Below, piece by piece: positions 3,255 through 43,562 of a DNA stretch of 54,694 nucleotides. Position 1 is the first letter of the stretch. The number at the start of each line of letters is the position of its first letter. Origin of the DNA: an uncultured Anaerolineaceae bacterium (lineage in GTDB: Bacteria > Chloroflexota > Anaerolineae > Anaerolineales > DRMV01); the NCBI GenBank assembly GCA_964386185.1, contig CAYLRJ010000003.1:1-54694 (forward strand), read 5' to 3'. Under the pieces are notes generated by a model, which worked only from the letters and a program-made list of their open reading frames with translations, made no database searches and was not told the origin of the DNA. A program made the position numbers and the translations under genes.

Positions 3255-3283
3255 GCGCGTGGGTTTGGTTGGAGGTTGAAACT

Positions 3284-3562: not shown

Positions 3563-3565
3563 GCT

Positions 3566-3916
3566 ATGGCGATCGATGTCCGCGCAAAGGCGCGTTACGT
3601 GCCTGTTTCACCCTATAAAGCGCGCCGGGTCATCAACCTGGTGCGGGGCAAGGACGCACAAGAAGCGTTAGACATCCTGCGCTTCATGCCGCACAGCGCG
3701 GCGCGTCCGGTGTATAAACTCATCGCTTCGGCCATCGCGAACGCCGAAGAAAACTTCGGTTTGAACCGTGAGGACCTTTACATCTATCGCATCTTTGCAG
3801 ATGAAGGCCCTACCCGCAAGTGGCGACGCTTCGGCGCTCGGGGGCGCTTTAAACCCATTCTCAAGCGCTCCTCGCACATCACCGTGATCCTGCGCGAGCA
3901 CGAAGAAGAGGTATAG
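3566..3916 (+). CDS. rplV: 50S ribosomal protein L22
   Basis: [15 protein letters not shown]...SAIANAE...KRSSHITV. Confidence 0.97.
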
Positions 3917-3926
3917 GAGTCATTTT

Positions 3927-7514: not shown

Positions 7515-8069
7515 GTGTCTCGTATTGGACGGTTGCCCGTACCTGTGCCCGACAACGTGCAGGTAGAAGTGAAGGGCTCGCACGTCCGGGTGAAGGGGCC
7601 CAAAGGTGAATTGGCGCAGACCTTCCCCGCGGCGATGAAAATAACCTACAAGCCCGAAGAAAAAGTCATTACCGTTGAGCGCCCCACGGACGAGCGGCAG
7701 CATCGGGCCTGGCATGGCATGACCCGCGCCCTCATCAACAACATGGTGGTGGGCGTGAGCCAGGGCTTTGAAAAAGTGTTGGAAGTCCACGGCGTGGGCT
7801 ATCGGGCTGAAATGAAAGGTCAAGACCTGGTTTTGCATGTGGGGTTCTCCCACCCGGTCCAGGTCTCCCCGCCCGAAGGCATCGCCTTTGAGGTGGATAC
7901 CAAATCCCGCCCGATGCGCATTATCGTTCGGGGTTACGACAAGCAAAAGGTCGGCCAGGTGGCCGCGGACATCCGCAAAGTGCGCCCGCCCGAACCATAC
8001 AAGGGCAAGGGCATTCGCTACGCGGGCGAACATGTCCGCCGCAAGGCCGGTAAGGCTGGCAAGGTGTAG
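7515..8069 (+). CDS. rplF: 50S ribosomal protein L6
   Basis: GTG start after AGGAGG; [27 protein letters not shown]. Confidence 0.98.
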
Positions 8070-8085
8070 TGGAGCGAGGTTGAAA

Positions 8086-8451
8086 ATGGCTAAGAAAACC
8101 CGACGAGAGGCACGAATTCGGCGCCACCTGCGGGTGCGCAAAAAGGTGCACGGGACGCCTGAACGGCCGCGGTTGAACGTCTTTCGCAGCTTGGGGCACA
8201 TTTACGCCCAAGTGATTGACGACGAAGCCGGCCACACCCTGGTTTCGGCTTCGACCATTGACAAAGCACTGCGGGCGCAAATGGAAGGCCTGACGAAAAC
8301 CGAACAAGCGCGTTTGGTAGGGAAAGCCATTGCCGAGCGCGCCCGAGCGGTGGGCATCACCACAGTGGTGTTCGACCGTGGCGGCTACAAATACATTGGC
8401 CGGGTCAAAGCCCTGGCCGACGGCGCCCGTGAAGGCGGCTTGGAATTCTAA
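8086..8451 (+). CDS. rplR: 50S ribosomal protein L18
   Basis: [47 protein letters not shown]. Confidence 0.98.
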
Positions 8452-8466
8452 GGCGAGGAGAACGCT

Positions 8467-9006
8467 ATGGCTCAGTATCAACCTGCTGTACAAGCAGAAG
8501 ACGAACTGGAAGAGCGCACCGTTGAAATCGCCCGTGTGGCAAAGGTGGTGAAAGGTGGTCGGCGGTTTACCTTCCGCGCCACCGTGGTGGTGGGCGACCG
8601 CCGCGGCCGCGTGGGCATTGGCGTGGGCAAAGCCGGCGCCGTGCCTGACGCCGTGCGCAAAGCCTCGGAACGCGCCCGCCGCAATCTGAAAAAGGTCAAC
8701 CTGTATGACACCACCATCCCGCACGAGGTGATTGGCGAAGTGGGCGGCGCGCGCGTCCTGCTCAAGCCGGCTTCCCCTGGTACCGGCGTGATTGCAGGCG
8801 GCGGCGTGCGTGCCGTGCTCGAGGCTGCCGGCGTGCGCGACATCCTGACCAAATCGCTGGGAAGCAACAACCTGCTCAACGTGGTCAAAGCCACCATGCA
8901 GGCCCTGGAGCAACTCAGGTCAGTAGAAGAAGTCGCAGCCGAGCGCGGCAAAAACCCCGAAGACGTGCTGCCCTTCTGGGACCGGAGGAAGAAGCGCCAT
9001 GACTAA
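8467..9006 (+). CDS. rpsE: 30S ribosomal protein S5
   Basis: [33 protein letters not shown]. Confidence 0.98.
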
Positions 9007-9187
9007 GAAAACATTGCGCATTACCTTAGTGAAGAGCCCCATTGGGTATGCCAAACGCCAAAAAGGCACCCTGCGGGCCCTGGGCTTGCGCCGGATGAAC
9101 CAGACGGTGGAACACGAGGACACCCCGGTCATTCGGGGCATGGTCGCCAAAGTGCGCCATTTGGTCCGCGTGGAGGAGAGTGCGTAA
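8999..9187 (+). CDS. rpmD: 50S ribosomal protein L30
   Basis: ITLVKSPIG...TLRALGLRR...[12 protein letters not shown]. Confidence 0.97.
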
Positions 9188-9188
9188 G

Positions 9189-9638
9189 ATGAAACTACAC
9201 GATTTGCGACCCAACCGCGGTGCCAAAAAAGCGCGGAAGCGTGTTGGCCGAGGGATTGCCGCGGGCCAAGGCAAAACGGCCGGCCGCGGCACCAAAGGCC
9301 AAGGCGCGCGCGCGGGTGGTGGCACCCGGCTTTACCACCAGGGCGGCAACCTGCCTTTCTTCCGCCGCCTGCCCTTCAAGCGCGGTTTCACCCCCATCAA
9401 CCGCGTGGAATACAACGAGGTCAACCTGGAGCGCTTGGCCAACTTCCCTGCCGAAAGCGAAATCACCCCCGAAGTGTTGGCCGACTTGGGCATCATCAGC
9501 GAACCGAAGAAGCCGGTGGTCATCCTTGGCCGGGGCGAAATTACGGTGCCGCTGAAGGTCAAAGTCCATCGCATTTCCAAAAGCGCTCGCGCCAAAATCG
9601 AAGCCGCGGGCGGCTCGGTGGAAATCATAAAACTCTGA
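9189..9638 (+). CDS. rplO: 50S ribosomal protein L15
   Basis: KRVGRGIAAGQGKTAGRGTKGQ, RRLPFKRGF. Confidence 0.97.
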   Translation: MKLHDLRPNRGAKKARKRVGRGIAAGQGKTAGRGTKGQGARAGGGTRLYHQGGNLPFFRRLPFKRGFTPINRVEYNEVNLERLANFPAESEITPEVLADLGIISEPKKPVVILGRGEITVPLKVKVHRISKSARAKIEAAGGSVEIIKL

Positions 9639-9672
9639 GCCCCAGGGCGACCCCTCTGCAAAGGAGCCTCGC

Positions 9673-11022
9673 ATGAAGCGTTCGGCTTGGCGCTATTTAT
9701 GGATGGCACCGGATATCCGCCGCAAGTTGCTCATCACCCTGGGCATCTTGTTGATTTACCGCTTGGCAGCCCATGTGCCTGTGCCCGGTGTGAACCACAA
9801 CGTCCTCTCGCAAATCCTCAACGCGGGAGGCGCCCAGGGCGCCTTTGTGGGCTTGCTGGACATGCTCTCTGGCGGTACGGTGTCCCAATTTTCTGTGCTG
9901 GCGATGGGGGTGTACCCCTACATCACCGCGCAGATTATCTTGCAAATTTTGGTGCCCATCATCCCTTCGTGGAAAGCCCGCATGGAAGAAGACCCGCGCG
10001 AAGGCCAAAAATGGATGGAGCGCTGGACCTACATCTTGGCCATCCCCATGGCGGCCCTGCAAGCCGTGGGGCAAATCAGCCTCTTCTCTGCCTTCGCAGG
10101 CGGCCAGCAAGTGCTGCGCAACTATGGTTGGAGCGGCGCCAACTTGCTGCCCACCATCACGGTGATTTTGGCCATGACCGCGGGCACCATGTTTGCCATT
10201 TGGCTGGGTGAACTGATTTCGGAATACGGCCTCCGCAATCAGGGGCTTTCCCTCATCATCTTTGCCGGTATCGTTGCCCGGATGCCCGCCAACTTTGCCC
10301 GGCTGATGGCCGACGAGCAACACCGCTGGGCCTATTTGATTATCTCCATCATCGTCACCGTGGCGACCATCTTCCTGATTGTGTACGTCCAACAGGGGCG
10401 GCGCAACGTGCCGGTGATGTACCCGGGGCGCCGCATCGGCACCCGAATGTCTATGCCGGTGAAGGGCACCTTCCCGCTGATGGTCAACATGGCCGGCATG
10501 ATCCCCCTGATCTTCGCCCAATCGTTGTTGGCGTTGCCGGGGATTGTGGCTGGCTTTTTCCTGGATTCGAGCACCCCGTGGCTCGCCAATTTGGCGAGTT
10601 CCATGCAGCGGATTTTCGCGCCAACCAGTGGTTGGTATTGGCTGACCTACTTCCTGATGGTGGTGCTGTTTACCTTCTTCTACACCGACGTGCTCTTCAT
10701 GCAGCAAAACTACGGCGAGCAATTGAAGCGCGCGGGTGCGAAAATCCCAGGGGTGCCACCGGGTGAAAAGACCCAACAATACCTGATGAGCGTCCTGCGG
10801 CGGATTACCCTGCCAGGAGCCCTGTTCTTGGGCTTTGTGGCCGTGCTGCCCTACCTGCTCACACTGTTGGTGCCAGGGCTGGCGGCCGCGGGGCAATCGG
10901 GCTTGCTGCTGATTTCTTCGGCAGGGCTGCTCATCGTGGTCGGTGTGGTGCGAGACGTCTTCTTCTTCATTGACGCCGAACTGCGCCTGCACGGCTACAC
11001 AGATACCTTGCTGGTCCGGTAA
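9673..11022 (+). CDS. secY: Preprotein translocase subunit SecY
   Basis: FSVLAMGVYPYITAQII, GLSLIIFAGIV, GIMP-like AGMIPLIFA, multiple TM segments; position. Confidence 0.97.
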   Translation: MKRSAWRYLWMAPDIRRKLLITLGILLIYRLAAHVPVPGVNHNVLSQILNAGGAQGAFVGLLDMLSGGTVSQFSVLAMGVYPYITAQIILQILVPIIPSWKARMEEDPREGQKWMERWTYILAIPMAALQAVGQISLFSAFAGGQQVLRNYGWSGANLLPTITVILAMTAGTMFAIWLGELISEYGLRNQGLSLIIFAGIVARMPANFARLMADEQHRWAYLIISIIVTVATIFLIVYVQQGRRNVPVMYPGRRIGTRMSMPVKGTFPLMVNMAGMIPLIFAQSLLALPGIVAGFFLDSSTPWLANLASSMQRIFAPTSGWYWLTYFLMVVLFTFFYTDVLFMQQNYGEQLKRAGAKIPGVPPGEKTQQYLMSVLRRITLPGALFLGFVAVLPYLLTLLVPGLAAAGQSGLLLISSAGLLIVVGVVRDVFFFIDAELRLHGYTDTLLVR

Positions 11023-11097
11023 CGGGCTGACAAACGCCGTTCGTTGTTGGTCGGGAGCACAAACGACCGGCCGCCCCGTTGACCTTGGAGGTTCGTC

Positions 11098-11763
11098 GTG
11101 TCGGTGTTTATCGTGCTGTTAGGCGCGCCTGGCGCGGGCAAGGGCACCCAAGCCAAAATCCTTTCGCAGAAGACGGGGTTGCCCCAAATCTCTACGGGTG
11201 ACATCTTCCGTGAGCACCTGAAAAACCAAACCGAACTGGGCAAACTGGCTCAGCAATACATGAGCAAAGGCGAGCTGGTGCCCGACGACGTCACCGTCGC
11301 GATGGTGCGGGAACGCCTCTCGCGGCCGGATTGTGCGCGCGGCGCCATCCTGGATGGCTTCCCGCGCACACCCGCTCAAGCCGAAGCCTTGGATACCATC
11401 CTGGCTGAGTTGGGCGGCAAAGTGGGCATCGTGCCTTTCATCAAAGTGCCCGAAGACGAGTTGGTCGAGCGCCTTTCAGGGCGGCTCATCTGTCGGGCGC
11501 AGGGGCACATCTTCCACAAAAAATTCCACCCGCCCAAAGTGCCCGGCATTTGCGACTACGACGGCTCAGAACTTTATCAGCGCGAAGACGATCGCCCCGA
11601 AGTGGTTCGCAATCGCATTCGCGTCTACCTGGAGCAGACCCAGCCCCTGGTGGCCTATTACCGAAAAAAGGGCGTGTTGGTCGAAATTGACGGCACCCAG
11701 CCCATCGAAAAGGTCACCGAGGCGATTTGGGCTGCCCTTCCCGAGGAAGTCAAACACGCATGA
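11098..11763 (+). CDS. adk: Adenylate kinase
   Basis: GAPGAGKGTQA P-loop, ISTGDIFR, ILDGFPRT, YQREDD. Confidence 0.97.
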   Translation: MSVFIVLLGAPGAGKGTQAKILSQKTGLPQISTGDIFREHLKNQTELGKLAQQYMSKGELVPDDVTVAMVRERLSRPDCARGAILDGFPRTPAQAEALDTILAELGGKVGIVPFIKVPEDELVERLSGRLICRAQGHIFHKKFHPPKVPGICDYDGSELYQREDDRPEVVRNRIRVYLEQTQPLVAYYRKKGVLVEIDGTQPIEKVTEAIWAALPEEVKHA

Positions 11764-12533
11764 GTTGGGATCGCCAAATCATCCTCAAGAGCCCGAAAGA
11801 GATAGCCATCATGCGGGAGGCGGGGCGCATCAACGCGCTGGCGTTGCAGGCCGTCCGGGAAGCCGCCCGCCCAGGCATCACCACAGCCGAACTGGACGCG
11901 ATTGCGGAGGAAGTCATCCGAAGCCACGGTGCAGTACCGGCGTTCAAGGGGTATCCGGGTCCTTACCCCTACCCCGCCACCATCACGGCCAGCATCAACG
12001 AAGAACTGGTGCACGGCATTCCCAGTGATAAACGTCGCCTGCGGGAAGGCGACATCGTTTCGATTGATTGTGGCACGATTTACAAAGGCTATGTAGCGGA
12101 CTCGGCGTTCACCATGGGCATTGGGAACATCTCTCCCGAAGCCCAGCGGTTGCTGGAGGTGACCGAGCGCGCGCTGTATGTCGGGATTGACAAACTGCGC
12201 GCGGGCAACCGGGTTGGGGATGTCTCCGCGGCAATCCAACACTATGTGGAATCGCACGGTTACCATGTAACCCGCGAATACACCGGCCACGGCGTAGGGC
12301 GCGAGATGCACGAAGGCCCTTCCGTGCCCAACTATGGGCTGCCGGGGCGCGGGGTAATGTTGCGGGTGGGCATGGTCATCGCGTTGGAACCCATGGTGTT
12401 GATAGGCACCCCCAAGACCCGCGTCTTGCCTGATCGGTGGACGGTGGCCTCGGCCGATGGCAGCCTCACCGCCCACTTTGAGCATACGGTCGCCATCACC
12501 GAGGATGGCCCAGTCATCCTCACAGTGGTTTGA
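11760..12533 (+). CDS. map: Methionine aminopeptidase type I
   Basis: SINEELVHGIP, GDIVSIDCG, YTGHGVG, ALEPM, AHFEHT. Confidence 0.97.
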   Translation: MSWDRQIILKSPKEIAIMREAGRINALALQAVREAARPGITTAELDAIAEEVIRSHGAVPAFKGYPGPYPYPATITASINEELVHGIPSDKRRLREGDIVSIDCGTIYKGYVADSAFTMGIGNISPEAQRLLEVTERALYVGIDKLRAGNRVGDVSAAIQHYVESHGYHVTREYTGHGVGREMHEGPSVPNYGLPGRGVMLRVGMVIALEPMVLIGTPKTRVLPDRWTVASADGSLTAHFEHTVAITEDGPVILTVV

Positions 12534-20090: not shown

Positions 20091-20418
20091 AACACACCTC
20101 GTTGGTGAGAAATGCCAAACCGGGGTCAATGCAGGGGTATTCTACCGCGCTTTCGCGCGTCTTTCTCATTATAACCGTTTCTTGGCGCCCAGAAGGCCGA
20201 TTGGGTGGGGTCGTGTGGGGGGAAAGCGATGGTGAAGGGGCGCGGCCGTGGCGGGGCTTGGCCCGGTGACATTGGGGGGCCAAGGCAGCAAGGGCAGTTT
20301 CCCTGCCCAGCACCAGATGCAGCCCAAAGAGCCTTCCTTTTGGCGCCCCTTGTGGTATAACAAAGAGCAATCCTCGGCGCGGCGGGTGCGCTGCGTGAGA
20401 TATTTCCATAAGGTGGTC

Positions 20419-21363
20419 ATGGCCCTTCTTTCACCGCCCTCTGCGGGGCAGCGTTTTCCGATTTTGGTGACCGGCGCTCACCGGGCAGGCACGACATGGA
20501 TAGGGCGCACGTTGTCGGCCGGTGGTGAAGCCGCGTATATCAACGAGCCTTTGAGCCGCATTCATCGCCCCGGGGTGTTTGGCGCGCAGGTGCCGCAGTG
20601 GTATTTTTATTTGTGCGCCGAAAACGAAGCCCCGTTTTTAGAGCCCTTTCGGCAGATGTTGGCGTTTCGTTACGGATGGGGGCGCGAATTGCGAGCCGTG
20701 CGTTCCCCGCGCGATGTAGCTCGCATGGGGCGTGATGGCTTCCGCTTTGTGTGGGCGCGGCTGAAACATCAGCGCCCTTTGCTCAAAGACCCTTTTGCGG
20801 TGTTTTCGCTGCCCTGGTTTGTGGCGCGTTGGGGGGCGCAGGCCGTGGTGGTGGTGCGGCATCCTGCGGCGGTGGTCAGCAGTTGGCTGCGGCTGGGGTG
20901 GGTGGTGCCGCCGCGGGCTTTGCTTCGTCAGCCTTTGCTGTTGAACCACGTTCTCACAGCCGATGAAATTGCCGCGTTGGAAAGCGCCCAAAGCGCGGCG
21001 CCATTGGTGCAGGCTGCTTTGTTGTGGCGGGTGATTTACCGCGTCGTCGCGGAGTATCGGGCGACAGAGCAAGCCATCGTGGTGCGTCACGAAGATTTGG
21101 CCCTCGCGCCGGTGGAAAGGTTCCGCACCCTCTACGGCGCGTTGGGGCTGCGCTTCACCCCGCGCGTGCAGCGCCTCATCGAGAAAACCACCGGCGGCAA
21201 AGCCGGAGAAACCGACCCAAAACACCCTCACAGGGTACAATTGAATAGCAAGGCCGTGACGCGGGCGTGGCGTCAGCGGCTCGCACCAGAACAAATTGCA
21301 CACATTCGGGCGTTGACCGAACCTGTAGCATCGCAGTTCTATACCGAGGCCGATTGGGCATGA
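20419..21363 (+). CDS. Sulfotransferase family protein
   Basis: PAPS-binding-like ILVTGAHRAGTTW, YINEP, LLKDP, VVRHPAAVVSS, VRHEDL; start set at ATG 20419. Confidence 0.8.
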   Translation: MALLSPPSAGQRFPILVTGAHRAGTTWIGRTLSAGGEAAYINEPLSRIHRPGVFGAQVPQWYFYLCAENEAPFLEPFRQMLAFRYGWGRELRAVRSPRDVARMGRDGFRFVWARLKHQRPLLKDPFAVFSLPWFVARWGAQAVVVVRHPAAVVSSWLRLGWVVPPRALLRQPLLLNHVLTADEIAALESAQSAAPLVQAALLWRVIYRVVAEYRATEQAIVVRHEDLALAPVERFRTLYGALGLRFTPRVQRLIEKTTGGKAGETDPKHPHRVQLNSKAVTRAWRQRLAPEQIAHIRALTEPVASQFYTEADWA

Positions 21364-21388
21364 TGGCCCGACGGGCGAAGGAGGCACA

Positions 21389-22372
21389 ATGACACACCGT
21401 TGGCGAGAACTTTTGTTTCGCCCCCCTTCGTTGGAAGATCTCATCGGGGTGTTGCGCGCCTGGCGCTGGTGGGTGTTGATGGGCTTATTGGGCGCCCTCT
21501 TGGGCGCGGTGGCCTTTTGGGTGACGCCCTCGCCTTATCGCGCCAGGGCCGAAGTTGTGGTGGACTACAATTTGGAAGAAGCCGTGCCGGCCGGTACAGA
21601 CCGGCAGTTGTTCTACTTCTTGGGGCGAGAGAACAAAAAATTGCGAGATTTGGCTTTTAGCGATGCTGTGCTCGGCCAAATGGCGCAAACTTTGGGGGAG
21701 CCCGTGGACCCCGCCTGGCGCACAGGGGTGTTGTTGTTGCGCGAGGAAAAGGATGGCGCGTGGCATTTTTGGGCTGAGGCTTCCACGCCTGCACGGGCTC
21801 AGGCCCTGGCCGCGGCTTGGGCGCAGGCTTTTGTGCAGGTCGCACAGGAAAAAATCAGCGTAGCACGGCGGATTCAGAGCCTTTGGGAAGGCATCTTTGC
21901 CTTGCGCAAACAGCAAGCCGCGCTGGAAAACGGTTGCGCAGTGGCTGCCCAAGCCTTGGAAGTGTTGCCGCAGTGGCAACCACCTACCACGCCCTGGGAA
22001 GCCTGGCGCCTCGAAGAGGTTTTGGCATGGTTAGACCAAAGCGGGCTGCCCCTGCCACTGACCACCGAAGGCACGCTGGGCCCTGATGCCATTCAGACCG
22101 CAGAGGCCGTCGCGCGGGATCGTTTGGCCCAATGCGAGCAAGTAAAACCCCAGTTGATTCAGCAAGAGCAGCGCCTGCAAACCCAGTTAGACGCGCTCAT
22201 GCCCCAAAGCGGCGGCCTTTCGCCCCGCACAGAAGTGGTGCTTTCGCAAACTCAAAATCTGCCGGTGCAGCGTGTGGCCTCGCGCACTGCGTTCATCTTA
22301 GCTGGCGCGCTGCTGGGCGTGTTGGTGGCCTTTTTGCTGGGGCTGTTTTGGGGAGGGCAGCGTGATGCGTAA
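21389..22372 (+). CDS. Wzz-like polysaccharide chain-length regulator / co-polymerase-like membrane protein
   Basis: N- and C-terminal TM segments around a coiled region; begins DLIGVLRAWRWWVLMG; Y.ARAEVVV. Confidence 0.6.
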   Translation: MTHRWRELLFRPPSLEDLIGVLRAWRWWVLMGLLGALLGAVAFWVTPSPYRARAEVVVDYNLEEAVPAGTDRQLFYFLGRENKKLRDLAFSDAVLGQMAQTLGEPVDPAWRTGVLLLREEKDGAWHFWAEASTPARAQALAAAWAQAFVQVAQEKISVARRIQSLWEGIFALRKQQAALENGCAVAAQALEVLPQWQPPTTPWEAWRLEEVLAWLDQSGLPLPLTTEGTLGPDAIQTAEAVARDRLAQCEQVKPQLIQQEQRLQTQLDALMPQSGGLSPRTEVVLSQTQNLPVQRVASRTAFILAGALLGVLVAFLLGLFWGGQRDA

Positions 22373-23768
22373 ACCCTCAGTGCAAACGATAGCCCGTGGG
22401 CTATGGGCTTTGGTGATGCTGACTTTGCCCATCACCAGTTTTCGTTATTACCCCCACATTTTCGGCACCACGCAAGTCAAACCTTTGGCCTTTTTGCCTT
22501 TGGCTGCCTATTTGCCTTTGGGGCTGTGGCTGGCGTGGCGGGAACGCCGCTGGCGTTGGCTGGGCGCGTTAGTGCCCTTGGTGGCCTTTGGCTTGGCTGC
22601 CTTGTTGAGCACGGTGTGGGGCTGGGTGCATAGCCCATTGCCCTTGTTTGGCATTGGCTATCTGGGGCGCACCCTGCGAGCCTGGATTAGTTTTGGGGTG
22701 GGCTTGAGTTTCTTTTTGGGCGCGCTATTGGCCCATCGCAACGAAGAAGACATTCGCTGGAGCCTGCAATGGCTGTATGCGGGGTTTGTGGTAGCGGCGC
22801 TTTGGGGCACGTTGCAGGTTTTGGCCATCAAGGTGTATCGTCCTTTGTGGCCGGTGTTGAATCGGGCGCAAAAGCTGTTTTCCATTCAGGGGATGATGCC
22901 GCGCCGTATCTCGGGCATGGCTTATGAGCCTTCCTGGTTTGCCGACCAGTTGGTGAGTTTGTATTTGCCTTGGTTGGTGGCGGCTTTGTTGAGTGGTTAT
23001 GCGCTGTTTCGGCGCTGGTGGTGGACGGCATTGTTGTTGGCCTGGGCGGGCATTTTGTTGGTGTTTACCTATTCTCGCAGTGGTGTGTTGGTCGCGGTGG
23101 GCGCGGCTGGGGCTGTGGTTGTGTTGGGCGCGCTGCGTTGGGGTGGGCAGCGCTTAAAAGCCGAGACCTTGGCGCGGGCCTGGCGGCGGAGTTTGGCGGC
23201 CATCGCCGTGGCCGCGTTGTTGGTGTTGGTGGGTGGGGCGGTGTTGATGCAAAATTCTTATTTCGCCAGCCTCTTCCAGCGCAAGCCAGGCCAAAGTTGG
23301 GTGGATTATTTCGTCAGCGCCCGCAGCGGAGCCCGCTTGGCGTATGCTTGGGCGGCTATGGCCTCGTTTGACCGTTCGCCCTGGTTGGGTGTGGGTTTGG
23401 GGGCCAGCGGCTTCAATCTCTACGCCGATTTGCCCGAATGGTCGGCTACGCTGCCCGAAATTGCTCGCTATACCAGCCCTTATTACCACGTCTTCCCCAA
23501 CCCGAAAAATATGTACATCCGTTTGCTGGCCGAGACGGGCATGGTGGGTTTTTTGACATTTTTGGGTTTTGTTTTGTATGTCTTGGGGCAAGCGTTGGCC
23601 TGGTGGCGGGCGGAGACGCCGTACGCGCGTTTTATGGGCATGGCCGGCGTGTGGATTTTGGCCGCGGTGGTGCTGCGCTGGTTTACGCAGGATTCATTGG
23701 CCATGCCCAACGTTTGGCTGGGGTTGGGCATGATGTTGGGGCCAATGATGGAACGGCACGGCGAGTAG
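22365..23768 (+). CDS. O-antigen ligase/Wzy-like polytopic membrane protein
   Basis: About 12 TM segments; RISGMAYEPSW, LVFTYSRSG, SPWLGVGLG, NPKNMYIRLLAETGMVG. Confidence 0.8.
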   Translation: MRKPSVQTIARGLWALVMLTLPITSFRYYPHIFGTTQVKPLAFLPLAAYLPLGLWLAWRERRWRWLGALVPLVAFGLAALLSTVWGWVHSPLPLFGIGYLGRTLRAWISFGVGLSFFLGALLAHRNEEDIRWSLQWLYAGFVVAALWGTLQVLAIKVYRPLWPVLNRAQKLFSIQGMMPRRISGMAYEPSWFADQLVSLYLPWLVAALLSGYALFRRWWWTALLLAWAGILLVFTYSRSGVLVAVGAAGAVVVLGALRWGGQRLKAETLARAWRRSLAAIAVAALLVLVGGAVLMQNSYFASLFQRKPGQSWVDYFVSARSGARLAYAWAAMASFDRSPWLGVGLGASGFNLYADLPEWSATLPEIARYTSPYYHVFPNPKNMYIRLLAETGMVGFLTFLGFVLYVLGQALAWWRAETPYARFMGMAGVWILAAVVLRWFTQDSLAMPNVWLGLGMMLGPMMERHGE

Positions 23769-24099: not shown

Positions 24100-24504
24100 A
24101 TGCGTCGCAAGTCCCGTATTATTTTCTTGGTTGTTATTTTGGCATTGTTGGCCGTGTTGGCCTATGGTTTTGCCGCCCAAAACACGGTGGATAGCTCCTA
24201 CGCCGGTGATGGTTGGGCGGGAGTGAGTGGTTACTACGTCAAAAACATTCAATACACCCTTGACAGCGCTGACCCCAGCCTGGTAGCCAGTGTGAGTTTT
24301 TCCTTGCAAGACAGCGCTGGCAATGATTTGCCTGCGACGACCGTCTATGCTGCGGTGGCTGACGACAACGCCGGCACGCCGGGCACGTGGACTTGGTCTA
24401 ACGCATGCACCCAAGACGCGACCACGCTGGTGTGGTCGTGCAGTTGGGGCACCGAGCCCGCTGTGGTCAACATCTACTATTTCCGGGTATCCGCCGGGCA
24501 GTAA
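24100..24504 (+). CDS. Secreted protein (134 aa), candidate SipW-processed fibre subunit
   Basis: GGAGG SD; basic and hydrophobic N-terminus ending AYGFAAQNTV; beta-rich mature part with two Cys. Confidence 0.75.
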   Translation: MRRKSRIIFLVVILALLAVLAYGFAAQNTVDSSYAGDGWAGVSGYYVKNIQYTLDSADPSLVASVSFSLQDSAGNDLPATTVYAAVADDNAGTPGTWTWSNACTQDATTLVWSCSWGTEPAVVNIYYFRVSAGQ

Positions 24505-24547: not shown

Positions 24548-24576
24548 AAGGCGCGGCGGAAGCCGCGCCTTGCTTT
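24548..24576 (+). terminator. Intra-operon hairpin (partial terminator or mRNA stabiliser)
   Basis: AAGGCGCGGC-GGAA-GCCGCGCCTT followed by a weak T tract. Confidence 0.55.
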
Positions 24577-24593: not shown

Positions 24594-26792
24594 ATGGGCT
24601 GGAAGCGCCGCCTACAGTGGCTGAGTGTGTTGGTGCTGTTGGCCGTGGCCGGGGTGGTGTTGGCCCCTGCTCGGTTGGGCGGCGACATGTACTACGTCAT
24701 GCTCACCGGCCCCAGCATGGAGCCCCATTTCCACCTGGGCGATTTGGTGTTGGTGCGGCGGGCAGCCTTTTATCAGCCCGGCGATATTGTGCTCTATCGG
24801 CACCCGGAAATTGGCTACGTCTTCCATCGCATCATTGGTTTTGATGTGCACGGCCGCTATCGCTTGCAAGGCGATAACAACACCTGGGAAGACCCCTACC
24901 ATCCAACCCAAGATGACATCTTGGGAAAATTTGTGTTGCGAATTCCCAAAGCCGGCAAGATTTTGCAAACCGCCCGCCAGCCGTGGGTGATTGCCCTGCT
25001 GGTGGTTTTGCTGGGGTGGCTTCTCCTCTCCATCCCTGAAGATGCCACCCAAGATGAACTGGGAAGGTTCCCCATGTTGCAGAACGATACGCTCAAAGAT
25101 TGGTTGTTGGTTTGGGCTGCTTTTTTGCTGGCGGCTCTGGTGTTGGGCTTGGTCGCGTGGACGCGGCCTGCGACGGTCCAGGTTCAGGAGCCCCTCCCTT
25201 ACCAACAAGTGGTGGATTTTTCCTACACCGCGCGGGCCCCGCAAGGCTTGTATGACCAGCCCCAGGTGCAGCCGGGTGAGCCCATTTTCACGGAGCTCAT
25301 CGGGACCCTGACCGTCTCTGCCCATTACGGCTGGCAGGCTGAGGTGCCCTATCGGGTGCAAGGCACCTATCAGGTGTTGGCGCGGGTCAGCGACAATACC
25401 GGCTGGAAGCGCACCGTGCCCCTCACGCCAGTGACTGCCTTCGAGCAGGGGTTTGACGTCCAAAACACGGTGGATTTGCAAACGTTCAAAGACTTCGTGC
25501 AAATCATGGAAGATGAGACCGGTGTGCGTCACAACCTTTACACCCTTTCGGTGGTGATTCATGTCAACGCGCAGGGCACGGTAGGCCACTTCCCTGTGCG
25601 GGTGGTGGCGGACCCCGCGTTGAACTTCCAGTGGGACGGGCGGGCGCTGGTGCTTCTTGCCCCCAGCAATGGCCCCGGCCAGCCCAAAGCCGACCCTTTG
25701 CACTGGGTGCACGAAGGGGTGGTTGTGCAAGAGACAACCCAGGTCAACCGTTTGACCCTTTTGGGGCTGGATGTGCCCGTGCCGTTGGCCCGTCAGGTTT
25801 CGGTGGGCGTGGGTGGGTTGGCGTTGGTGCTGCTGTTGCTGACCTGGTGGCTGGCCGAGCGTCGCGCGGCGGTGGACCCTGTGGCCCGTCTGCAGTGGGC
25901 GTTTGACGTGGCGGTGATTCCGGTTGAAATGATGCCGCGGGTGGAGCAGCCGTGGGTGCCGGTGGCCCAACCGGATGATTTGGGCAAGCTGGCTGTTTTG
26001 CAGCGTTTGCCGATCTTTGTCTGGCAGGAACACGGCCAGCAGCGGCTGTGGGTCCAGACGGGAGAGGCGGCGTTTTATTACGAAACTGGTGCGCTTGTGC
26101 CCGCGTGGCTGCGCTCGGTGGTGTCGTTGCCTGCGCGGCGGGGGCGGAGCCGCCGTGGCGCTTTGCCCTGCGAGCGGCTTTTGGAAGGCTGGGCTCAAGC
26201 GGTGGATGCTCAAAGCGTTGGCGACCCCGCACACTCTCGGCGGGTCGCGGCTTTGGCCGTGGCTCTGGGGCGGTTGATGGGCTTGCCAGAGGCCACCTTG
26301 GCCGATTTGCGCCGCGCAGCTTTGATTCATGGTTTGGGGCTCATGAGCCTTCCTGAAGAACTCGCCCGCAAGCCCGACGCCCTGAACAAACAAGAGCGGA
26401 CTTTGTTGCAAGCGCATCTCCAATATCTGGAAACGCACCTGGCTACTTTGGATGACCTGCGCCCTGCCCTGCGCATTGCCTACTACCATCATGAACGCTG
26501 GGACGGCAGCGGCTATCCGCAGGGTTTGAGTGGCGAAGACATCCCGCTTGAGGCGCGCATTTTGGCGGTGGCCGACGTTTGGGATTCCCTGCGCCATCCA
26601 CGCCCTTATCGTTCGGCTTGGCCTTTCCAGACGGTGCGGCAGTTTATGCAGCAAAAGGCCGGCATTTGGTTTGACCCCCAAGTGGTGGATGCACTGCTCA
26701 CGCTCTTGAAAGACGAACACGACGAGCAGTTGCTTTGGCAGCCTGTCGAAGCGGAGGTATCCCATGAGGAGATGGCGTCGTTGGAGGCGTAA
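24594..26792 (+). CDS. Fusion of an S26 SipW-type signal peptidase, a DUF5305-like domain and a degenerate HD-GYP domain
   Basis: GPSMEP (Ser), VFHRII (His), QGDNN; four TM segments; HHERWDGSGYPQGLSGEDIPLEARILAVADVWD; HD is replaced by HG (ALIHGLG). Confidence 0.8.
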   Translation: MGWKRRLQWLSVLVLLAVAGVVLAPARLGGDMYYVMLTGPSMEPHFHLGDLVLVRRAAFYQPGDIVLYRHPEIGYVFHRIIGFDVHGRYRLQGDNNTWEDPYHPTQDDILGKFVLRIPKAGKILQTARQPWVIALLVVLLGWLLLSIPEDATQDELGRFPMLQNDTLKDWLLVWAAFLLAALVLGLVAWTRPATVQVQEPLPYQQVVDFSYTARAPQGLYDQPQVQPGEPIFTELIGTLTVSAHYGWQAEVPYRVQGTYQVLARVSDNTGWKRTVPLTPVTAFEQGFDVQNTVDLQTFKDFVQIMEDETGVRHNLYTLSVVIHVNAQGTVGHFPVRVVADPALNFQWDGRALVLLAPSNGPGQPKADPLHWVHEGVVVQETTQVNRLTLLGLDVPVPLARQVSVGVGGLALVLLLLTWWLAERRAAVDPVARLQWAFDVAVIPVEMMPRVEQPWVPVAQPDDLGKLAVLQRLPIFVWQEHGQQRLWVQTGEAAFYYETGALVPAWLRSVVSLPARRGRSRRGALPCERLLEGWAQAVDAQSVGDPAHSRRVAALAVALGRLMGLPEATLADLRRAALIHGLGLMSLPEELARKPDALNKQERTLLQAHLQYLETHLATLDDLRPALRIAYYHHERWDGSGYPQGLSGEDIPLEARILAVADVWDSLRHPRPYRSAWPFQTVRQFMQQKAGIWFDPQVVDALLTLLKDEHDEQLLWQPVEAEVSHEEMASLEA

Positions 26793-27276
26793 AGCGCGGT
26801 GGTGGGTGGTGTTGGCGGTGTTGGGGTTGTGGGCTGTCAGCGTGACGGCATACAGCGCCCAAAACAGTGTGCCCCCCACGCGGTTAGACGACCAGGTGCA
26901 AGGGGTTTCTTTGCAGCAGTTTGTGCCCCCGGAATGCGCGGGCATCGTGATTGAAAACATCATTGTTGCAGGAAGCGGACGGCGTTGGGTGTATGGCACC
27001 GACGGCAATGATTTGATTTTGGGTAACGATCGGGTCAATCGCATTGACGGCCTGGGCGGCGATGACTGCATCGTAGGCGGCGCGGGCAGCGAAGGCTGGT
27101 GGCTGTGGGGCATCATCCCGCTGGCGGCTTATTTGCGCGGCGGCGATGGCAACGACGTCATCTTGGGCGGCGCTGGGAACGACATCATCCTCGGCGATGC
27201 AGGCACAGACGTCATCTACGGGGGCACGGGCACCGATTATTGCGATGGGGAAGTAACTTATGAATGCGAGTGGTGA
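26764..27276 (+). CDS. Secreted protein with hemolysin/RTX-type Ca-binding glycine repeats
   Basis: Signal ending TAYSAQNSV; GGDGNDVIL, GGAGNDIIL, GDAGTDVIY, GGTGTDYC repeats; GGAGGT SD. Confidence 0.8.
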   Translation: MRRWRRWRRKARWWVVLAVLGLWAVSVTAYSAQNSVPPTRLDDQVQGVSLQQFVPPECAGIVIENIIVAGSGRRWVYGTDGNDLILGNDRVNRIDGLGGDDCIVGGAGSEGWWLWGIIPLAAYLRGGDGNDVILGGAGNDIILGDAGTDVIYGGTGTDYCDGEVTYECEW

Positions 27277-27316
27277 GGGGCGCTAAAGCACCTTGGCGCC
27301 CCGCTTCTGGGGGCGC

Positions 27317-27345
27317 TTGACACTCACGCTGCTTGCCGTTATAGT
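27317..27345 (+). promoter_or_regulatory. Sigma70-type promoter of the GT2-HAD unit
   Basis: TTGACA, 17 bp spacer, TATAGT. Confidence 0.75.
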
Positions 27346-27412
27346 TAGGCCGCCGCGTAACCTTTCGGAGCGGCCTGTGTTGTCGTGTGTGAAACGCGTG
27401 AGGAGCCCATCC

Positions 27413-28135
27413 ATGAGCGAAGCCAACGCTTCCCTAAAGCCCTATACCGTGACCGTGGTCGTGCCTGCGTATAACGAGCAACAGACCATTCGCGAAATCC
27501 TTCAGCACGTCGCCGCCACAGGCGTGCCCGATGAGATCATCGTGGTGGACGACGGCTCTACCGATGGCACGCGAGAAATTTTGGCCGCCTTAGAGGCCGA
27601 GGGGGAGATTCCCAACCTGCGGGTGTTTTATCACGATCATAACCAGGGCAAAGGCGCCGCGCTGCGGACGGGCTTTCAGCATGCAACGGGCGACATCATC
27701 ATCATCCAAGACGCCGATTTGGAATACGACCCGCGCCATTACCCCCAATTGCTCAAGCCCATCGAAGAGGGGTTGGCCGACGTGGTCTATGGCTCTCGCT
27801 TCCTGGGCGCACCGCGGCGACCCATTTTGTTTTGGAACATGGTGGCCAACAAAATTTTGACCTTGATTACCAACATCCTCTACAACACCATCTTGTCAGA
27901 TATGGAAACAGGCTACAAAGTGTTCAAACGAGAAGTGGTCGCCGAAATGCCCTTGCACGCCCGCAGCTTTGATTTTGAGCCCGAGTTTACGGCCAAGGTG
28001 CTCAAACGAGGGTATCGCATCTTCGAAGTGCCCATTGCCTTCAACCCCCGCGACTATACCGAAGGGAAGAAAATCAAGGCCAAAGACGGCCTGATTGCCT
28101 TGTGGACTTTAATCAAATATCGTTTTGTGGATTGA
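27413..28135 (+). CDS. Glycosyltransferase family 2 (polyprenol-phosphate mannose synthase-like)
   Basis: [47 protein letters not shown]. Confidence 0.92.
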
Positions 28136-28143
28136 GGGGCTTG

Positions 28144-28812
28144 ATGGCTTGGTTCTGGTTCTTCGATTTGGATGGCACCCTCTACGACGCTCAAAGCGGT
28201 TTGTGGCCGGCAATCAAAGAGCGTATCACCCTTTTCGTTCAACAACACCTCAATCTCACGCGGCGCGCAGCCGAAGCCTTGCGACAGCAATGGGTCGCCC
28301 AATATGGCACCACGTTGCGCGGACTGCAACACGCCGACCCCGCGTTGGACGCCCGAGCCTATTTTGCTTTCGTGCATGACCTGCCCTTGGAAGATTACAT
28401 CCACCCTGACCCGCGTTTGGCTGCAGTGTTGGCGGCCTTGCCCGGTCGGAAGTGGGTGTTGACCAACGCTGACGCAGCACACGCCCAACGGGTGTTGCAA
28501 CGGTTGGGCGTTCGGGAGCACTTCGTGGGTGTCATTGATTTGTTTGCCTTGGGAGAAATCCCCAAACCCCTGCCCGAGGCCTATCGGCGTGCTTTAGCGC
28601 TGGCAGGAAGCCCCCCACCCGCGCAATGCGTGTTGGTTGACGACCAACCGCGCAATGTGGCTGCGGCGCAAGCGTTGGGAATGCGCACGGTATGGATAGC
28701 GCCGGTGGCTGCTCCAGACGGGCCAGGGGATGCGCACGTGACCGAGATTTACCAACTGCCTGCCGTGTGGCAGCGTTGGGCGCAAGAGGGCCAAGGAGGG
28801 AAGGATGCTTAA
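28144..28812 (+). CDS. HAD-superfamily hydrolase, pyrimidine 5'-nucleotidase-like
   Basis: FFDLDGTLY, YGTTLRGL, LTNAD, KP, LVDDQPRN. Confidence 0.85.
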   Translation: MAWFWFFDLDGTLYDAQSGLWPAIKERITLFVQQHLNLTRRAAEALRQQWVAQYGTTLRGLQHADPALDARAYFAFVHDLPLEDYIHPDPRLAAVLAALPGRKWVLTNADAAHAQRVLQRLGVREHFVGVIDLFALGEIPKPLPEAYRRALALAGSPPPAQCVLVDDQPRNVAAAQALGMRTVWIAPVAAPDGPGDAHVTEIYQLPAVWQRWAQEGQGGKDA

Positions 28813-36013: not shown

Positions 36014-36577
36014 ATGGCACAACAACCCGATGAAGCACAATTACTCCGTGCTGCCCGTTCGTGGGATATGGATGCGTTGGCCACAATTTACGATGTTTAT
36101 AGCCCGATGATTTACCGCTATGCGATGCGGTTGTTGGGCTCAGAAGACCTGGCAGAAGAATGTGTGGCCGAGACATTCGCTCGGTTCCTGCAGGCGCTTC
36201 GCAATGGCGGAGGCCCCAAGGAACATCTCAAAGCTTACCTTTATCGGGTGGCTCACAATTGGATTACCGATTACTACCGCCGTCAACCCCCGCCGCAAGT
36301 GGATTTGGATTTGCTGGACAATGTCTTGACCGACACCGATGAGTCCTTAGGTGGGCGTGTGGCGGCGCAAGAGGAGCAAGAGCGGGTTCGAGCCGCTCTG
36401 CGCCTGTTGACACCGGATCAGCGTCAGGTGATTGTGCTGAGATTTTTGGAAGAATGGAGTCTGAAGGAAGTGGCCGAAGCCTTGCAAAAGCCCGTGGGCG
36501 CCGTCAAAGCGTTACAACATCGGGCCTTGGCCGCTTTGCGCCGCGTGCTTTCAGAGGAGGAACTGCATCATGGCTGA
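36014..36577 (+). CDS. ECF RNA polymerase sigma factor
   Basis: 187 aa; IYRYA...AEECVAETF, AYLYRVAHN, LTPDQRQVIVLRF...VKALQHRALAALRR. Confidence 0.93.
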   Translation: MAQQPDEAQLLRAARSWDMDALATIYDVYSPMIYRYAMRLLGSEDLAEECVAETFARFLQALRNGGGPKEHLKAYLYRVAHNWITDYYRRQPPPQVDLDLLDNVLTDTDESLGGRVAAQEEQERVRAALRLLTPDQRQVIVLRFLEEWSLKEVAEALQKPVGAVKALQHRALAALRRVLSEEELHHG

Positions 36578-38279
36578 TGAACTTGATCCCCGCTTGCGTG
36601 CCCACCTGGAAGCCCTGCGAGACGTTCCCCCGCGGGACCCTGAACGCGCGGTGCAGGGCAGGGCACAATTCCTGCGCCTGGCAGAGAGCATGAAGCCCGC
36701 CCACCTGCCCAATCAGGCCGCTTCTTCCCAAAAAGCCGTATCCTCAGGGCTTTTTGGGCGTCTAAAAGGGTGGATAGAGCAAACAAACCACCCACGAAAG
36801 GAGGGCCTGAAAATGGCTAATCTACTCGTTGCTATCCTCATGGCAATCAGTGTAATTTTTGGTGGCGGTGCTGCGACCGCCTACGCGTCGCAAGATGCGC
36901 TTCCGGGCGACGCTTTGTATCCCGTCAAGACGATGGTTGAGCAGGCTGAATTGATGCTCACCACCGACCCTCAACAGAAAGCGGAACTCCATGTGGAGTT
37001 TGCCCAACGCCGAGTGGCTGAAATTCAAGCGCTGGTGGCCGAAGGCCGGTTGGATATGGTGCCGGAGGTCAGCCAAAACTTGGAACAGCACCTGCAGAAA
37101 GCCGAACAACTGGCGACCCAACTGGCCAAGGAAGGCCATCCTGATGCTGCCGCTCGGGTAGCCGTCATGCTGGCCAACACCAGCCGCATGGTCGAACGAG
37201 TGGCCGAACAGGCACCGCCTCAGGCCCAAAGCGCGATGCGCTATGTGGAACAGATGACCAACCAGGTCACCGAGCGGGTTCGCACCGAAGCCCAAAAGAT
37301 GTCGGCAATGGCCCAGACGTTCCACATCAACGGGGCTGTGGAAGCCATCGAAGACGGTGCCTGGGTTGTGAACGGCCAAACCATCATCGTCAACGATCAG
37401 ACGAACATCGAAGGTGAATTCCAGGTTGGCGATTCGGTTGCAGTGAGCGGCTATGTGGATCCTGAAGGCCAATGGATCGCCGTGCAAATCCGCCCTGCCA
37501 ACCCCATGCACCAGAGCCCCGCGACCGTCCACTTCAGCGGCATCATCGAAGACATCACCGACACCCAATGGACGATCGCCGGCCAGCAAGTGACCATCGT
37601 GCCTGAAACCAAGATCAAAGGCGAATTCCAGGTTGGTGACACCGTGAGTGTGGAAGCCGCTGTGGACCCCGACGGCACCCTGGTGGCCATCGCCATCAAA
37701 CCTGCCGGCGAAGCCAAACCGCAACCCAAGATGATCTCCTTCCAGGGTGCAGTTGAAGCCCAAAACGACGGCGAGTGGATTGTGGACGGCAAGAGCGTGG
37801 CCATCACCGCTAACACCAAGATGCAAGATGGTATCCAGGTTGGCGACACCGTGATGGTGGTCGCAAGCGAAAACGCCGACGGCACGCTGGAAGCCAAATC
37901 CATCATGCTGATCGCTCACCGTGAGAAACACGAAAACCAAGGCGAAACCCCCTCGCCGATGCCCACCCAAAAACCGAATACGCCGACCGAAAAACCCACT
38001 GAAAAACCCACCGAAAAACCCCGCTCGCAGATGACCATCAAAGGTGCCCTGATGGCACAAAACGGCGACACCTGGATCGTGAATGGCTACACCGTCAAAG
38101 TGACGGCCCAGACCCAAATGCTGAACAGCGTGCGCCTGGGCGACCAAATCAGCGTGGTAGCGCTCGACAACGGTGATGGCACCTACACAGCCCTGAGCGT
38201 TGCCCTGATGGGCGGCATGGACAATCACAGCAGCACCTCGACGCCCACTGAAATGCCCCACGACGGGATTCACCACTAA
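36570..38279 (+). CDS. Probable anti-sigma factor with a TM segment, a DUF5667-like domain and four DUF5666-like repeats
   Basis: Overlaps the ECF stop; ALPGDALYPVK...E; four ~60-aa G.VE.I...W.V.G...T.I...QVGD.V.V repeats. Confidence 0.8.
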   Translation: MADELDPRLRAHLEALRDVPPRDPERAVQGRAQFLRLAESMKPAHLPNQAASSQKAVSSGLFGRLKGWIEQTNHPRKEGLKMANLLVAILMAISVIFGGGAATAYASQDALPGDALYPVKTMVEQAELMLTTDPQQKAELHVEFAQRRVAEIQALVAEGRLDMVPEVSQNLEQHLQKAEQLATQLAKEGHPDAAARVAVMLANTSRMVERVAEQAPPQAQSAMRYVEQMTNQVTERVRTEAQKMSAMAQTFHINGAVEAIEDGAWVVNGQTIIVNDQTNIEGEFQVGDSVAVSGYVDPEGQWIAVQIRPANPMHQSPATVHFSGIIEDITDTQWTIAGQQVTIVPETKIKGEFQVGDTVSVEAAVDPDGTLVAIAIKPAGEAKPQPKMISFQGAVEAQNDGEWIVDGKSVAITANTKMQDGIQVGDTVMVVASENADGTLEAKSIMLIAHREKHENQGETPSPMPTQKPNTPTEKPTEKPTEKPRSQMTIKGALMAQNGDTWIVNGYTVKVTAQTQMLNSVRLGDQISVVALDNGDGTYTALSVALMGGMDNHSSTSTPTEMPHDGIHH

Positions 38280-38373: not shown

Positions 38374-38482
38374 GCCCCCAGACAGGCAACCCGACGGCAC
38401 CCAACGGATCCTCCTTAGGGCTGCTTCCTTTCGGACCTGACCCGGTTCGGAGGGCGTTGCCGCGTCGGACCCATCCGGGGGC
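38374..38482 (-). ncRNA. ffs: Signal recognition particle RNA (small 4.5S type)
   Basis: Minus strand contains the domain IV core GGGTCAGGTCCGAAAGGAAGCAGCCCT; ends GCCCCCGGATGGG and CCTGTCTGGGGGC pair. Confidence 0.93.
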
Positions 38483-41409: not shown

Positions 41410-41504
<95 letters not shown>

Positions 41505-43490: not shown

Positions 43491-43562
43491 TGGCGAGGGA
43501 GGGATTTGAACCCACAACCAAGGGCTTATGAGTCCCCTGCTCTACCATTGAGCTACCTCGCC
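43491..43562 (-). tRNA. tRNA with CAT anticodon (elongator Met or Ile2; not initiator)
   Basis: GGCGAGG/CCTCGCC acceptor, CTCATAA loop, TTCAAAT T loop, A73, CCA not encoded; G1-C72 paired. Confidence 0.88.

Follow-up and report, generated by a model that had tools for sequence, protein, structure and literature searches.

In a 54,694-nt stretch of DNA (hereafter, the window) from an uncultured Anaerolineaceae bacterium (contig CAYLRJ010000003.1 of assembly GCA_964386185.1, forward strand), we analyzed a fusion gene (24594–26792) encoding a protein of 732 amino acids (aa) that combines a signal peptidase I, a DUF5305 module, and a degenerate HD-GYP domain, and that lies between genes for two small secreted proteins. 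Our leading reading, which we hold tentatively, is that this protein is a dedicated peptidase or assembly machine joined to a cyclic-dinucleotide sensor, similar to LapD and DvhD but operating in cis. In this model, a four-pass membrane protein would expose a SipW-type peptidase and its DUF5305 accessory module on the outer face, where both would serve the products of the two flanking genes; these secreted proteins have in common a hydrophobic helix and, next to it, a YGFA/AQNTV-type motif (the slash marks the presumed cut), and they would be cleaved after ...GFA or ...YSA. The cytoplasmic HD-GYP domain would be a non-hydrolyzing receptor for cyclic di-GMP (c-di-GMP) or possibly 3'3'-cyclic GMP-AMP (3'3'-cGAMP), and ligand binding, probably through HD-GYP dimerization, would alter the state of the membrane complex, thereby coupling cleavage or assembly of the secreted proteins to the level of the second messenger. 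The direction of signaling, the identity of the substrates, and the formation of a fiber or matrix are parts of the model that we infer.

The 732-aa frame described in the initial annotation runs without interruption from the ATG at 24594 to the stop codon at 26790–26792. An alternative in-frame TTG at 24570 was rejected as the start, and 24594 is the likely start codon because the TTG sits inside a terminator-like hairpin (24548–24571) and the orthologues align from the methionine of MGWK.... On the opposite strand, an ORF (open reading frame) of 834 aa (24612–27116) is longer than the real gene and was rejected, homology support being absent; it is a shadow frame of GC-rich (60% G+C) DNA that an ORF caller could mis-pick. 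Kyte-Doolittle hydropathy gave exactly four hydrophobic segments (residues 10–28, 130–148, 170–188, and 402–420), in agreement with the four transmembrane (TM) helices of an AlphaFold2 model built from an alignment of 35 family members (predicted local distance difference test [pLDDT] 82.8; predicted template modeling score [pTM] 0.51), and the four-helix topology proposed initially is therefore upheld. The parts of the fusion gene and its product are as follows.

24594–26792, forward strand: fusion ORF, 732 aa, signal peptidase I plus DUF5305 module plus degenerate HD-GYP (ORF, Pfam/NCBIfam, orthologues, AlphaFold2)
Residues 3–23: TM1 (AlphaFold2)
Residues 29–129 (24678–24980, forward strand): external signal peptidase I domain of SipW/archaeal type, with Ser41 (24714–24716), His78, and Asp94
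Residues 32–117: peptidase beta-domain (AlphaFold2)
Residues 130–145: TM2 (AlphaFold2)
Residues 148–163 (25037–25085): acidic disordered loop (AlphaFold2)
Residues 165–190 (25086–25163): TM3 (AlphaFold2)
Residues 191–395 (25164–25778, forward strand): external beta-sandwich between TM3 and TM4 (AlphaFold2, hydropathy)
Residues 396–427 (25779–25874): TM4 (AlphaFold2)
Residues 429–498 (25878–26087, forward strand): cytoplasmic alpha/beta domain, the C-terminal part of the DUF5305 model (AlphaFold2)
Residues 500–522 (26091–26159, forward strand): disordered, poorly conserved linker (pLDDT <50, in-frame indels, non-synonymous divergence [dN] 0.65)
Residues 525–715 (26166–26738, forward strand): cytoplasmic helical HD-GYP domain (Pfam, alignments, Foldseek)

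The predicted cytoplasmic loop between TM2 and TM3 (residues 148–163) is strongly acidic and disordered in all orthologues (e.g., DEEEEN), an uncommon charge given the positive-inside rule; the loop marks the seam of once-separate peptidase and DUF5305 proteins.

A search of 5.8 billion proteins returned ten further orthologue clusters (731–746 aa, 34–76% identity) with the same full-length architecture, several of which contain 4–8 members each from independent NCBI, ENA, JGI, and Logan assemblies; the label given by NCBI is 'signal peptidase I [Chloroflexota bacterium]' (NPA92903.1, HFC10437.1). At the junction singled out in the initial annotation (about 26050–26200, residues 486–536), the linker varies in length among the orthologues, and the indels are always in frame. 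The fusion is real and conserved, and is neither the product of a stop-codon loss nor an assembly artefact: the scenario of separate genes in relatives that accompanied the initial annotation is contradicted by orthologues that remain fused down to 34% identity and by the in-frame linker indels. A scan of GTDB genomes included a peptidase–DUF5305 locus (L005) among the matches listed, with the generic pattern ERWDGSGY dominating the matches, and was uninformative on fused versus split genes.

The N-terminal part of the protein, annotated initially as an S26 peptidase, is by its sequence matches of the S26B/SipW type. The NCBIfam model TIGR02228 (archaeal/endoplasmic reticulum [ER]-type signal peptidase I) aligns to residues 3–147 with 72.8 bits, above its curated cutoff of 51.85, and Pfam Peptidase_S24 to residues 29–113 (E 9.5e-10, 38.6 bits vs. 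a cutoff of 23.3), whereas the NCBIfam SipW model matches at E 6.6e-11 but under its cutoff. The catalytic residues are intact (S41 in SMEP, H78 in FHRI, and D94 in GDNN) and form a Ser-His(-Asp) site rather than the Ser-Lys site of LepB; H78 and D94 are invariant, and S41 is conserved in at least 90% of 35 family members. A basic N-terminus (KRR) precedes TM1 (10–28), the peptidase fold lies between TM1 and TM2, and the catalytic domain is predicted to be membrane-anchored on the outer face. Foldseek matches of the peptidase model were weak (lambda repressor C-terminal domain and SipA/SPase, E 4e-3 to 1e-2).

The following region was initially described as an external DUF5305-like domain, and this held for the external beta-sandwich only, since DUF5305 is not purely external and also covers TM4 and the cytoplasmic alpha/beta domain. 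Pfam DUF5305 (PF17231) has no match in the window protein itself, even at E≤1, and membership is assigned through homologues: the domain was matched in 42 of 45 family members at E≤1e-3, is present in the precomputed annotation of orthologues P0003–P0010, and scores >29 bits in P0012, P0013, P0015, and P0027. Projected onto the window protein, the matches of these relatives cover residues ~271–496, i.e., the C-terminal half of the ectodomain, TM4, and the cytoplasmic alpha/beta domain. The modeled beta-sandwich (194–395), TM4, and alpha/beta domain (429–498) agree with a published description of DUF5305 (bioRxiv 10.64898/2026.01.04.697558); Foldseek gave only weak, generic matches for the beta-sandwich (TMEM106B luminal domain, ApaG). 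DUF5305 corresponds to TafG of haloarchaeal Tat-fimbriae, which was proposed to help the dedicated signal peptidase TafD, itself needed for TafA processing (PMC11821415, PMC12337348). Ser40, His83, and Arg84 listed for TafD are the counterparts of residues in the window peptidase.

To survey the family, a profile of the peptidase–DUF5305 core was searched against 1.84 billion representative proteins, resulting in 2736 matches at E≤1e-30. The best 150 of the 2736 are all peptidase–DUF5305 fusions (480–840 aa), among which 28 end in an EAL domain, 8 in HD-GYP, and 114 in no extra domain, with neither GGDEF nor PilZ found in these 150. The 36 EAL or HD-GYP domains occupy the same C-terminal position. 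EAL and HD-GYP have unrelated folds, and their sole common property is specificity for c-di-GMP-type nucleotides. A functional link to the messenger is argued most strongly by the presence of two unrelated c-di-GMP folds at one position on one scaffold, and their recurrent, independent fusion provides strong comparative evidence for such a link. In a neighbor-joining tree of the core (480 columns, without support values), the window protein falls in a clade of 13 HD-GYP members, with P0011 and P0183 nearby, whereas P0141 and P0146 are far off among domain-less proteins and EAL members form several interspersed groups; Fitch parsimony on this tree requires at least 24 gains or losses of the C-terminal domain.

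The EAL fusions repeat a pattern of retained binding and frequently lost catalytic residues. At 12 catalytic positions checked in 27 sequences (RocR numbering), the residues for c-di-GMP and the first metal (E175, R179, N233, E265, K316, E355, and Q372) are present in 25–27 of the 27, while the catalysis-specific E268, D296, and E352 are often lost. The canonical loop 6, DFG(T/A)GYSS, occurs in none of the 27, and only two keep all 12 positions.

The HD-GYP domain itself is clear-cut (Pfam HD_5, PF13487; residues 547–697, E 2.2e-39, 135.3 bits vs. a gathering score of 27.2) but degenerate. Aligned to PmGH (4MCW) and V-cGAP3 (5Z7C), its HD dyad reads H579-G580 (26328–26333), with Asp replaced by Gly, and the Lys of HDxGK is Leu583; the motif H632-H633-ERWDGSGYP642 (26487–26519) is intact, and six of the seven His/Asp metal ligands are kept (H547, H579, H608, H632, H633, and D661), the HD-dyad Asp being the one lost. 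Throughout the window clade D222 is replaced by G or A and K225 by L (PmGH numbering). P0003–P0009 also lose the HH pair (RT or RS), P0010 and P0156 lose still more, and a complete catalytic set is found only in P0141 and P0146, the HD-GYP members outside the main clade. The 15 closest non-fused Chloroflexota HD-GYPs among the matches listed (GTDB genome scan with orthologue alignment) all contain LLHD(I/M)G...HHERWDGSGYP, and 14 of 15 retain the Lys; the substitutions are therefore derived, a loss that occurred within the fused clade. Even so, the degenerate domain ranks, together with the peptidase, as the most constrained part of the fusion protein. Compared to P0002 (76% identical), dN was 0.097 for HD-GYP and 0.072 for the peptidase vs. 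0.209 for the ectodomain and 0.647 for the linker (synonymous divergence, dS, is saturated at ~1 to >3, making dN/dS ratios unreliable, and only relative dN is used). The GYP motif is the best-conserved stretch of the domain in the orthologue alignment. The initial annotation, which had the HD-GYP domain act on cyclic dinucleotides, thus stands with regard to the domain and its tie to c-di-GMP, strengthened by the EAL relatives; with the HD Asp and Lys lost, the domain is probably a sensor of the nucleotide, not an enzyme for it.

The top Foldseek match of the HD-GYP model was the DvhD HD-GYP bound to c-di-GMP (9RBZ, E 8e-10), followed by PA4781 (4R8Z) and PmGH (E 5e-9 to 2e-8), with V-cGAP3 weaker (4e-4). 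In DvhD, the HD dyad is SQ and the HH pair is MN, and the domain binds c-di-GMP metal-free (dissociation constant ~99 nM) without hydrolysis, dimerizing upon binding; this LapD-like protein controls the periplasmic protease DvhG from inside the cell (PMC13090378). The canonical-site contacts of DvhD were projected onto the window protein using a gap-free HMMER alignment.

DvhD L577, window L597: identical, invariant in 11 orthologues
DvhD K582, window R602: conservative
DvhD Y621, window Y641: identical, the Tyr of GYP
DvhD M646, window L666: conservative, invariant in 11 orthologues
DvhD R650, window R670: identical, invariant in 11 orthologues
DvhD Y652, window Y672: identical
DvhD R653, window R673: identical, invariant in 11 orthologues
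DvhD Y523, window G543: not conserved
DvhD E668, window K688: not conserved

Seven of the nine positions are identical or conservative, four of them invariant in all 11 orthologues, a pattern that fits retained nucleotide binding without proving it.

These data bear on two other accounts of the HD-GYP domain. It may have become independent of nucleotides and serve for docking or dimerization (e.g., with a GGDEF cyclase through the GYP motif) or stabilize a peptidase oligomer, which would suit the strong conservation of the GYP motif, a module tethered by a flexible linker, and the two missing DvhD contacts. We consider this unlikely, because the RPxR and Leu positions, which in DvhD are contacts of c-di-GMP, do not vary, and because the EAL fusions keep exactly the residues that bind c-di-GMP, which is hard to explain without nucleotide binding. 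Slightly less likely still, in our view, is a phosphodiesterase that remains active, weakly or with shifted metals, as a local sink for c-di-GMP or cGAMP, perhaps working outside-in and set by substrate load or assembly state. P0001 and P0002 keep six of seven metal ligands together with the full HHERWDGSGYP, and catalysis appears possible in some relatives, given the fully canonical HD-GYP of P0141 and P0146 and the two EAL members with 12 of 12 catalytic positions. However, the window protein has replaced both the metal-ligating HD-dyad Asp (G580) and the conserved Lys (L583), which are kept in 15 of 15 and 14 of 15, respectively, of the closest non-fused homologues among the matches listed, P0003–P0009 have conserved the domain even without the HH pair, and DvhD, with comparable losses, does not hydrolyze c-di-GMP. 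As a separate observation, P0141 and P0146 of the representative library combine the peptidase–DUF5305 core with a complete HD-GYP, and some family members may be true phosphodiesterases.

The second half of the sensor-coupled peptidase model concerns the neighbors of the fusion gene, which form a compact trio with it.

24100–24504, forward strand: 134-aa secreted protein (P0121), putative main substrate or subunit, with a signal-peptide helix and a six-strand beta-sandwich
24548–24571, forward strand: terminator-like hairpin separating the small gene from the fusion gene, 10-bp stem with 8 G-C pairs and a T-rich tail (pattern match)
26764–27276, forward strand: 170-aa secreted protein with RTX Ca-binding repeats and the motif ...AYSAQNSVP... 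after the signal peptide, overlapping the 3' end of the fusion gene by 29 nt

We compared seven loci: the window, L001, L002/L003, and L085 (HD-GYP type), L004 and L086 (EAL type), and L087 (no extra domain). In all seven, a gene for a protein of ~120–134 aa precedes the fusion gene and one for a protein of ~130–190 aa follows it, with a start that overlaps the 3' end of the fusion gene; the downstream protein has RTX Ca-binding repeats in most loci. In the window and L002/L003, the trio lies among polysaccharide-type genes, which L001 lacks; the trio is therefore the conserved unit. At the N-terminus of both neighbors, a basic stretch leads into a hydrophobic helix, after which comes a common motif of the YGFA-AQNTV type (...AYGFAAQNTVDSSYAGDG... 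at 24100–24504 and ...VTAYSAQNSVPP... at 26764–27276; AAANTV or AATNTV in the EAL-type and plain loci), a feature limited to these two ORFs within the window.

The small protein is most conserved in the segment Y[GA]FAAQNTVxxSYAGDG (residues 22–38), directly behind the signal helix, and an AlphaFold2 monomer model (pLDDT 80) shows this segment as disordered between the helix and the six-strand beta-sandwich. A conserved segment modeled as disordered is consistent with a cleavage site and, behind it, a donor strand. The cleavage region of TasA, ...TWA/AFND..., resembles ...GFA/AQNT.... The protein has no match in Pfam or NCBIfam and none in the PDB by sequence or profile, and the best Foldseek hits were unrelated beta-sandwiches (E 0.24). 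It was not assigned to the TasA-superfamily pilins (TasA, AbpA, AbpX, and TafE), given no significant sequence or fold similarity in these searches. Its family (P0121–P0133 and P0302–P0408) comprises at least 1438 clusters at 90% identity in Anaerolineales and Chloroflexi, which bear only 'hypothetical' names and have no Pfam domain and no PDB relative, but share the core Y[GA]FAA[QA]NTV. The 'matrix subunits' of the initial annotation are plausible from gene context, but the 134-aa neighbor shows no detectable similarity to pilins of the TasA family.

The arrangement of the trio makes it improbable that the fusion protein is a general housekeeping signal peptidase, with neighbors that are not specific substrates and an HD-GYP tail that regulates secretion globally: overlapping or coupled genes are conserved across very divergent loci, the predicted cleavage site of both neighbors carries a common motif not seen elsewhere in the window, and where SipW/TafD-type enzymes have been studied, they are dedicated peptidases. 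We give practically no credence to a fusion artefact (recent stop-codon loss, frameshift, or mis-assembly of two genes), for which nothing was found except that the junction (500–522) is poorly conserved, and which is opposed by full-length fused orthologues down to 34% identity in many independent assemblies, the in-frame linker indels, and EAL domains attached at the same point.

Several observations about the trio stand apart from these questions. The hairpin may act as an attenuator that yields an excess of the subunit over the enzyme, although the region is not enriched in terminator-like sites relative to shuffled sequences and the hairpin is a pattern match only. The downstream RTX proteins (26764–27276 in the window; 10198–10776 in L001) have a conserved Cys tail (...YECEW, ...SNCEW) and a Cys after the N-terminal motif, and these residues suggest disulfides or a specific C-terminal signal. 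The EAL-type locus L086 additionally contains a second small-protein paralogue, a 739-aa TadE-domain protein, and a 1444-aa protein downstream (1438–4224 and 7923–12254), which may serve this same system as additional subunits, an anchor, or an adhesin.

Returning to the sensor-coupled peptidase, a number of results weigh against it. The HD-GYP domain hangs on a disordered, poorly conserved linker of ~23 residues, whereas LapD and DvhD use rigid signaling helices. Two of nine DvhD contacts are lost (Y523 to G543 and E668 to K688), and with six metal ligands remaining, residual hydrolysis is possible. The best PDB sequence match of the domain is V-cGAP3, a cGAMP-specific enzyme, and the ligand could therefore be 3'3'-cGAMP, although the EAL parallel favors c-di-GMP. 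The extra domain is a dispensable add-on in that 114 of the best 150 representatives do without it, and the 134-aa protein lacks a significant sequence or fold match to TasA-superfamily pilins in Pfam, NCBIfam, the PDB, and Foldseek. The disordered linker affects the mechanism as well: it favors ligand-induced dimerization or docking over a rigid piston or helix rotation, and the modeled structure makes rigid-body inside-out transmission unlikely. The DvhD HD-GYP and the LapD EAL both dimerize when ligand binds.

The known routes by which c-di-GMP controls matrix production are transcription, the allosteric activation of polysaccharide synthases, and the sequestration of a periplasmic protease (Lap/Dvh). 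A bolder extension of the model, which we regard as doubtful, is that signal-peptide cleavage itself is controlled by c-di-GMP, so that the fusion proteins would be a new effector class maturing ~125-aa beta-sandwich proteins and an RTX partner, which might polymerize by N-terminal strand donation into Ca-dependent surface fibers or matrix in filamentous Chloroflexota. Joining a signal peptidase directly to a c-di-GMP-type sensor would add a fourth c-di-GMP node, at the release of a secreted subunit from its signal peptide. The compact, self-contained three-gene unit would also offer a handle on DUF5305, on a Pfam-less secreted family of at least 1400 clusters, and on the surface biology of Anaerolineae-type Chloroflexota, a little-studied group that abounds in sludge, sediments, and hot springs.

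The window represents a core chromosomal region, with a MazG-methylase fusion, LysM, and ribosomal proteins S2 and L9 nearby, and is syntenic with L001–L003. The polysaccharide-type genes around the trio (20248–23768 and 27293–28812) encode a sulfotransferase, Wzy_C, a GT2 glycosyltransferase, a HAD hydrolase, and a 327-aa unknown protein with a faint chain-length-determinant match; they could represent a lineage-specific sulfated-glycan or glycosylation module. An Rfam scan of the whole window at gathering thresholds placed no riboswitch, for c-di-GMP or otherwise, upstream of the operon, the only matches being a bacterial small signal recognition particle RNA and two tRNA genes (38377–38476, reverse strand; 41410–41501, forward strand; 43491–43562, reverse strand). 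No diguanylate cyclase or other c-di-GMP genes were found among the larger window ORFs scanned. At 36014–38279, a gene for a sigma-70 factor of the extracytoplasmic function (ECF) type overlaps the next gene downstream, which encodes a 569-aa DUF5667/DUF5666 protein; the two look like a sigma/anti-sigma pair.

Compared to known systems, the peptidase–DUF5305 half has already been described as a peptidase with its accessory subunit in TasA-like pilus loci, whereas the C-terminal domain is apparently unreported. Natural fusions of signal peptidase I (SPase I) and DUF5305 were described, e.g., in Anaerolinea thermophila (E8MZY1), as were diguanylate cyclase and HD-GYP genes near bacterial abpX loci (bioRxiv 10.64898/2026.01.04.697558); another such fusion is Tepidiforma WP_158065712.1. 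A limited literature search found no mention of HD-GYP or EAL fused to peptidase–DUF5305, and a search of the AbpX preprint supplement for Chloroflexota loci returned none. The initial remark that no characterized protein has this architecture consequently applies to the whole in the literature searched, but not to its peptidase–DUF5305 half. The TafD/TafG and AbpX loci have the same archaeal/ER-type Ser-His peptidase, the DUF5305 layout, and adjacent small secreted proteins with SPase I signal peptides, and the SPase I–DUF5305 fusions have four TM helices like the window protein. What the window protein adds is ~230 residues of cytoplasmic linker and HD-GYP (EAL in relatives), and its 134-aa neighbor is not detectably a homologue of TasA, AbpX, or TafE.

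DvhD/DvhG of Desulfovibrio vulgaris and LapD/LapG of Pseudomonas fluorescens are inside-out c-di-GMP receptor systems that act on a periplasmic protease. DvhD (HD-GYP) and LapD (EAL) are membrane proteins with a cytoplasmic phosphodiesterase-type domain without catalysis, and this HD-GYP/EAL duality recurs in the window family. In both systems an extracytoplasmic protease acts on a secreted RTX-type protein, and the window trio likewise includes an RTX protein. Their protease is a separate, sequestered, calcium-dependent cysteine protease, however, whereas that of the window is a Ser-His signal peptidase in cis. The window protein also has a disordered linker instead of a HAMP, PAS, or S-helix stalk, making it analogous at most and not a family member, and its HD-GYP keeps more metal ligands than that of DvhD. 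In Bacillus subtilis, the gene for the dedicated ER-type peptidase SipW lies between those for two secreted matrix proteins that it processes (tapA-sipW-tasA); SipW has ~190 aa and two TM helices, with no DUF5305 and no nucleotide-related domain, and its operon is regulated transcriptionally. PmGH (4MCW), PA4781 (4R8Z), V-cGAP3 (5Z7C), and RpfG have the same fold as the window HD-GYP and share its HHExxDGxGYP and RPYR motifs, but in contrast to these canonical phosphodiesterases, the window domain carries the Asp to Gly and Lys to Leu replacements and is fused to a secretory peptidase instead of REC, GAF, or PAS inputs.

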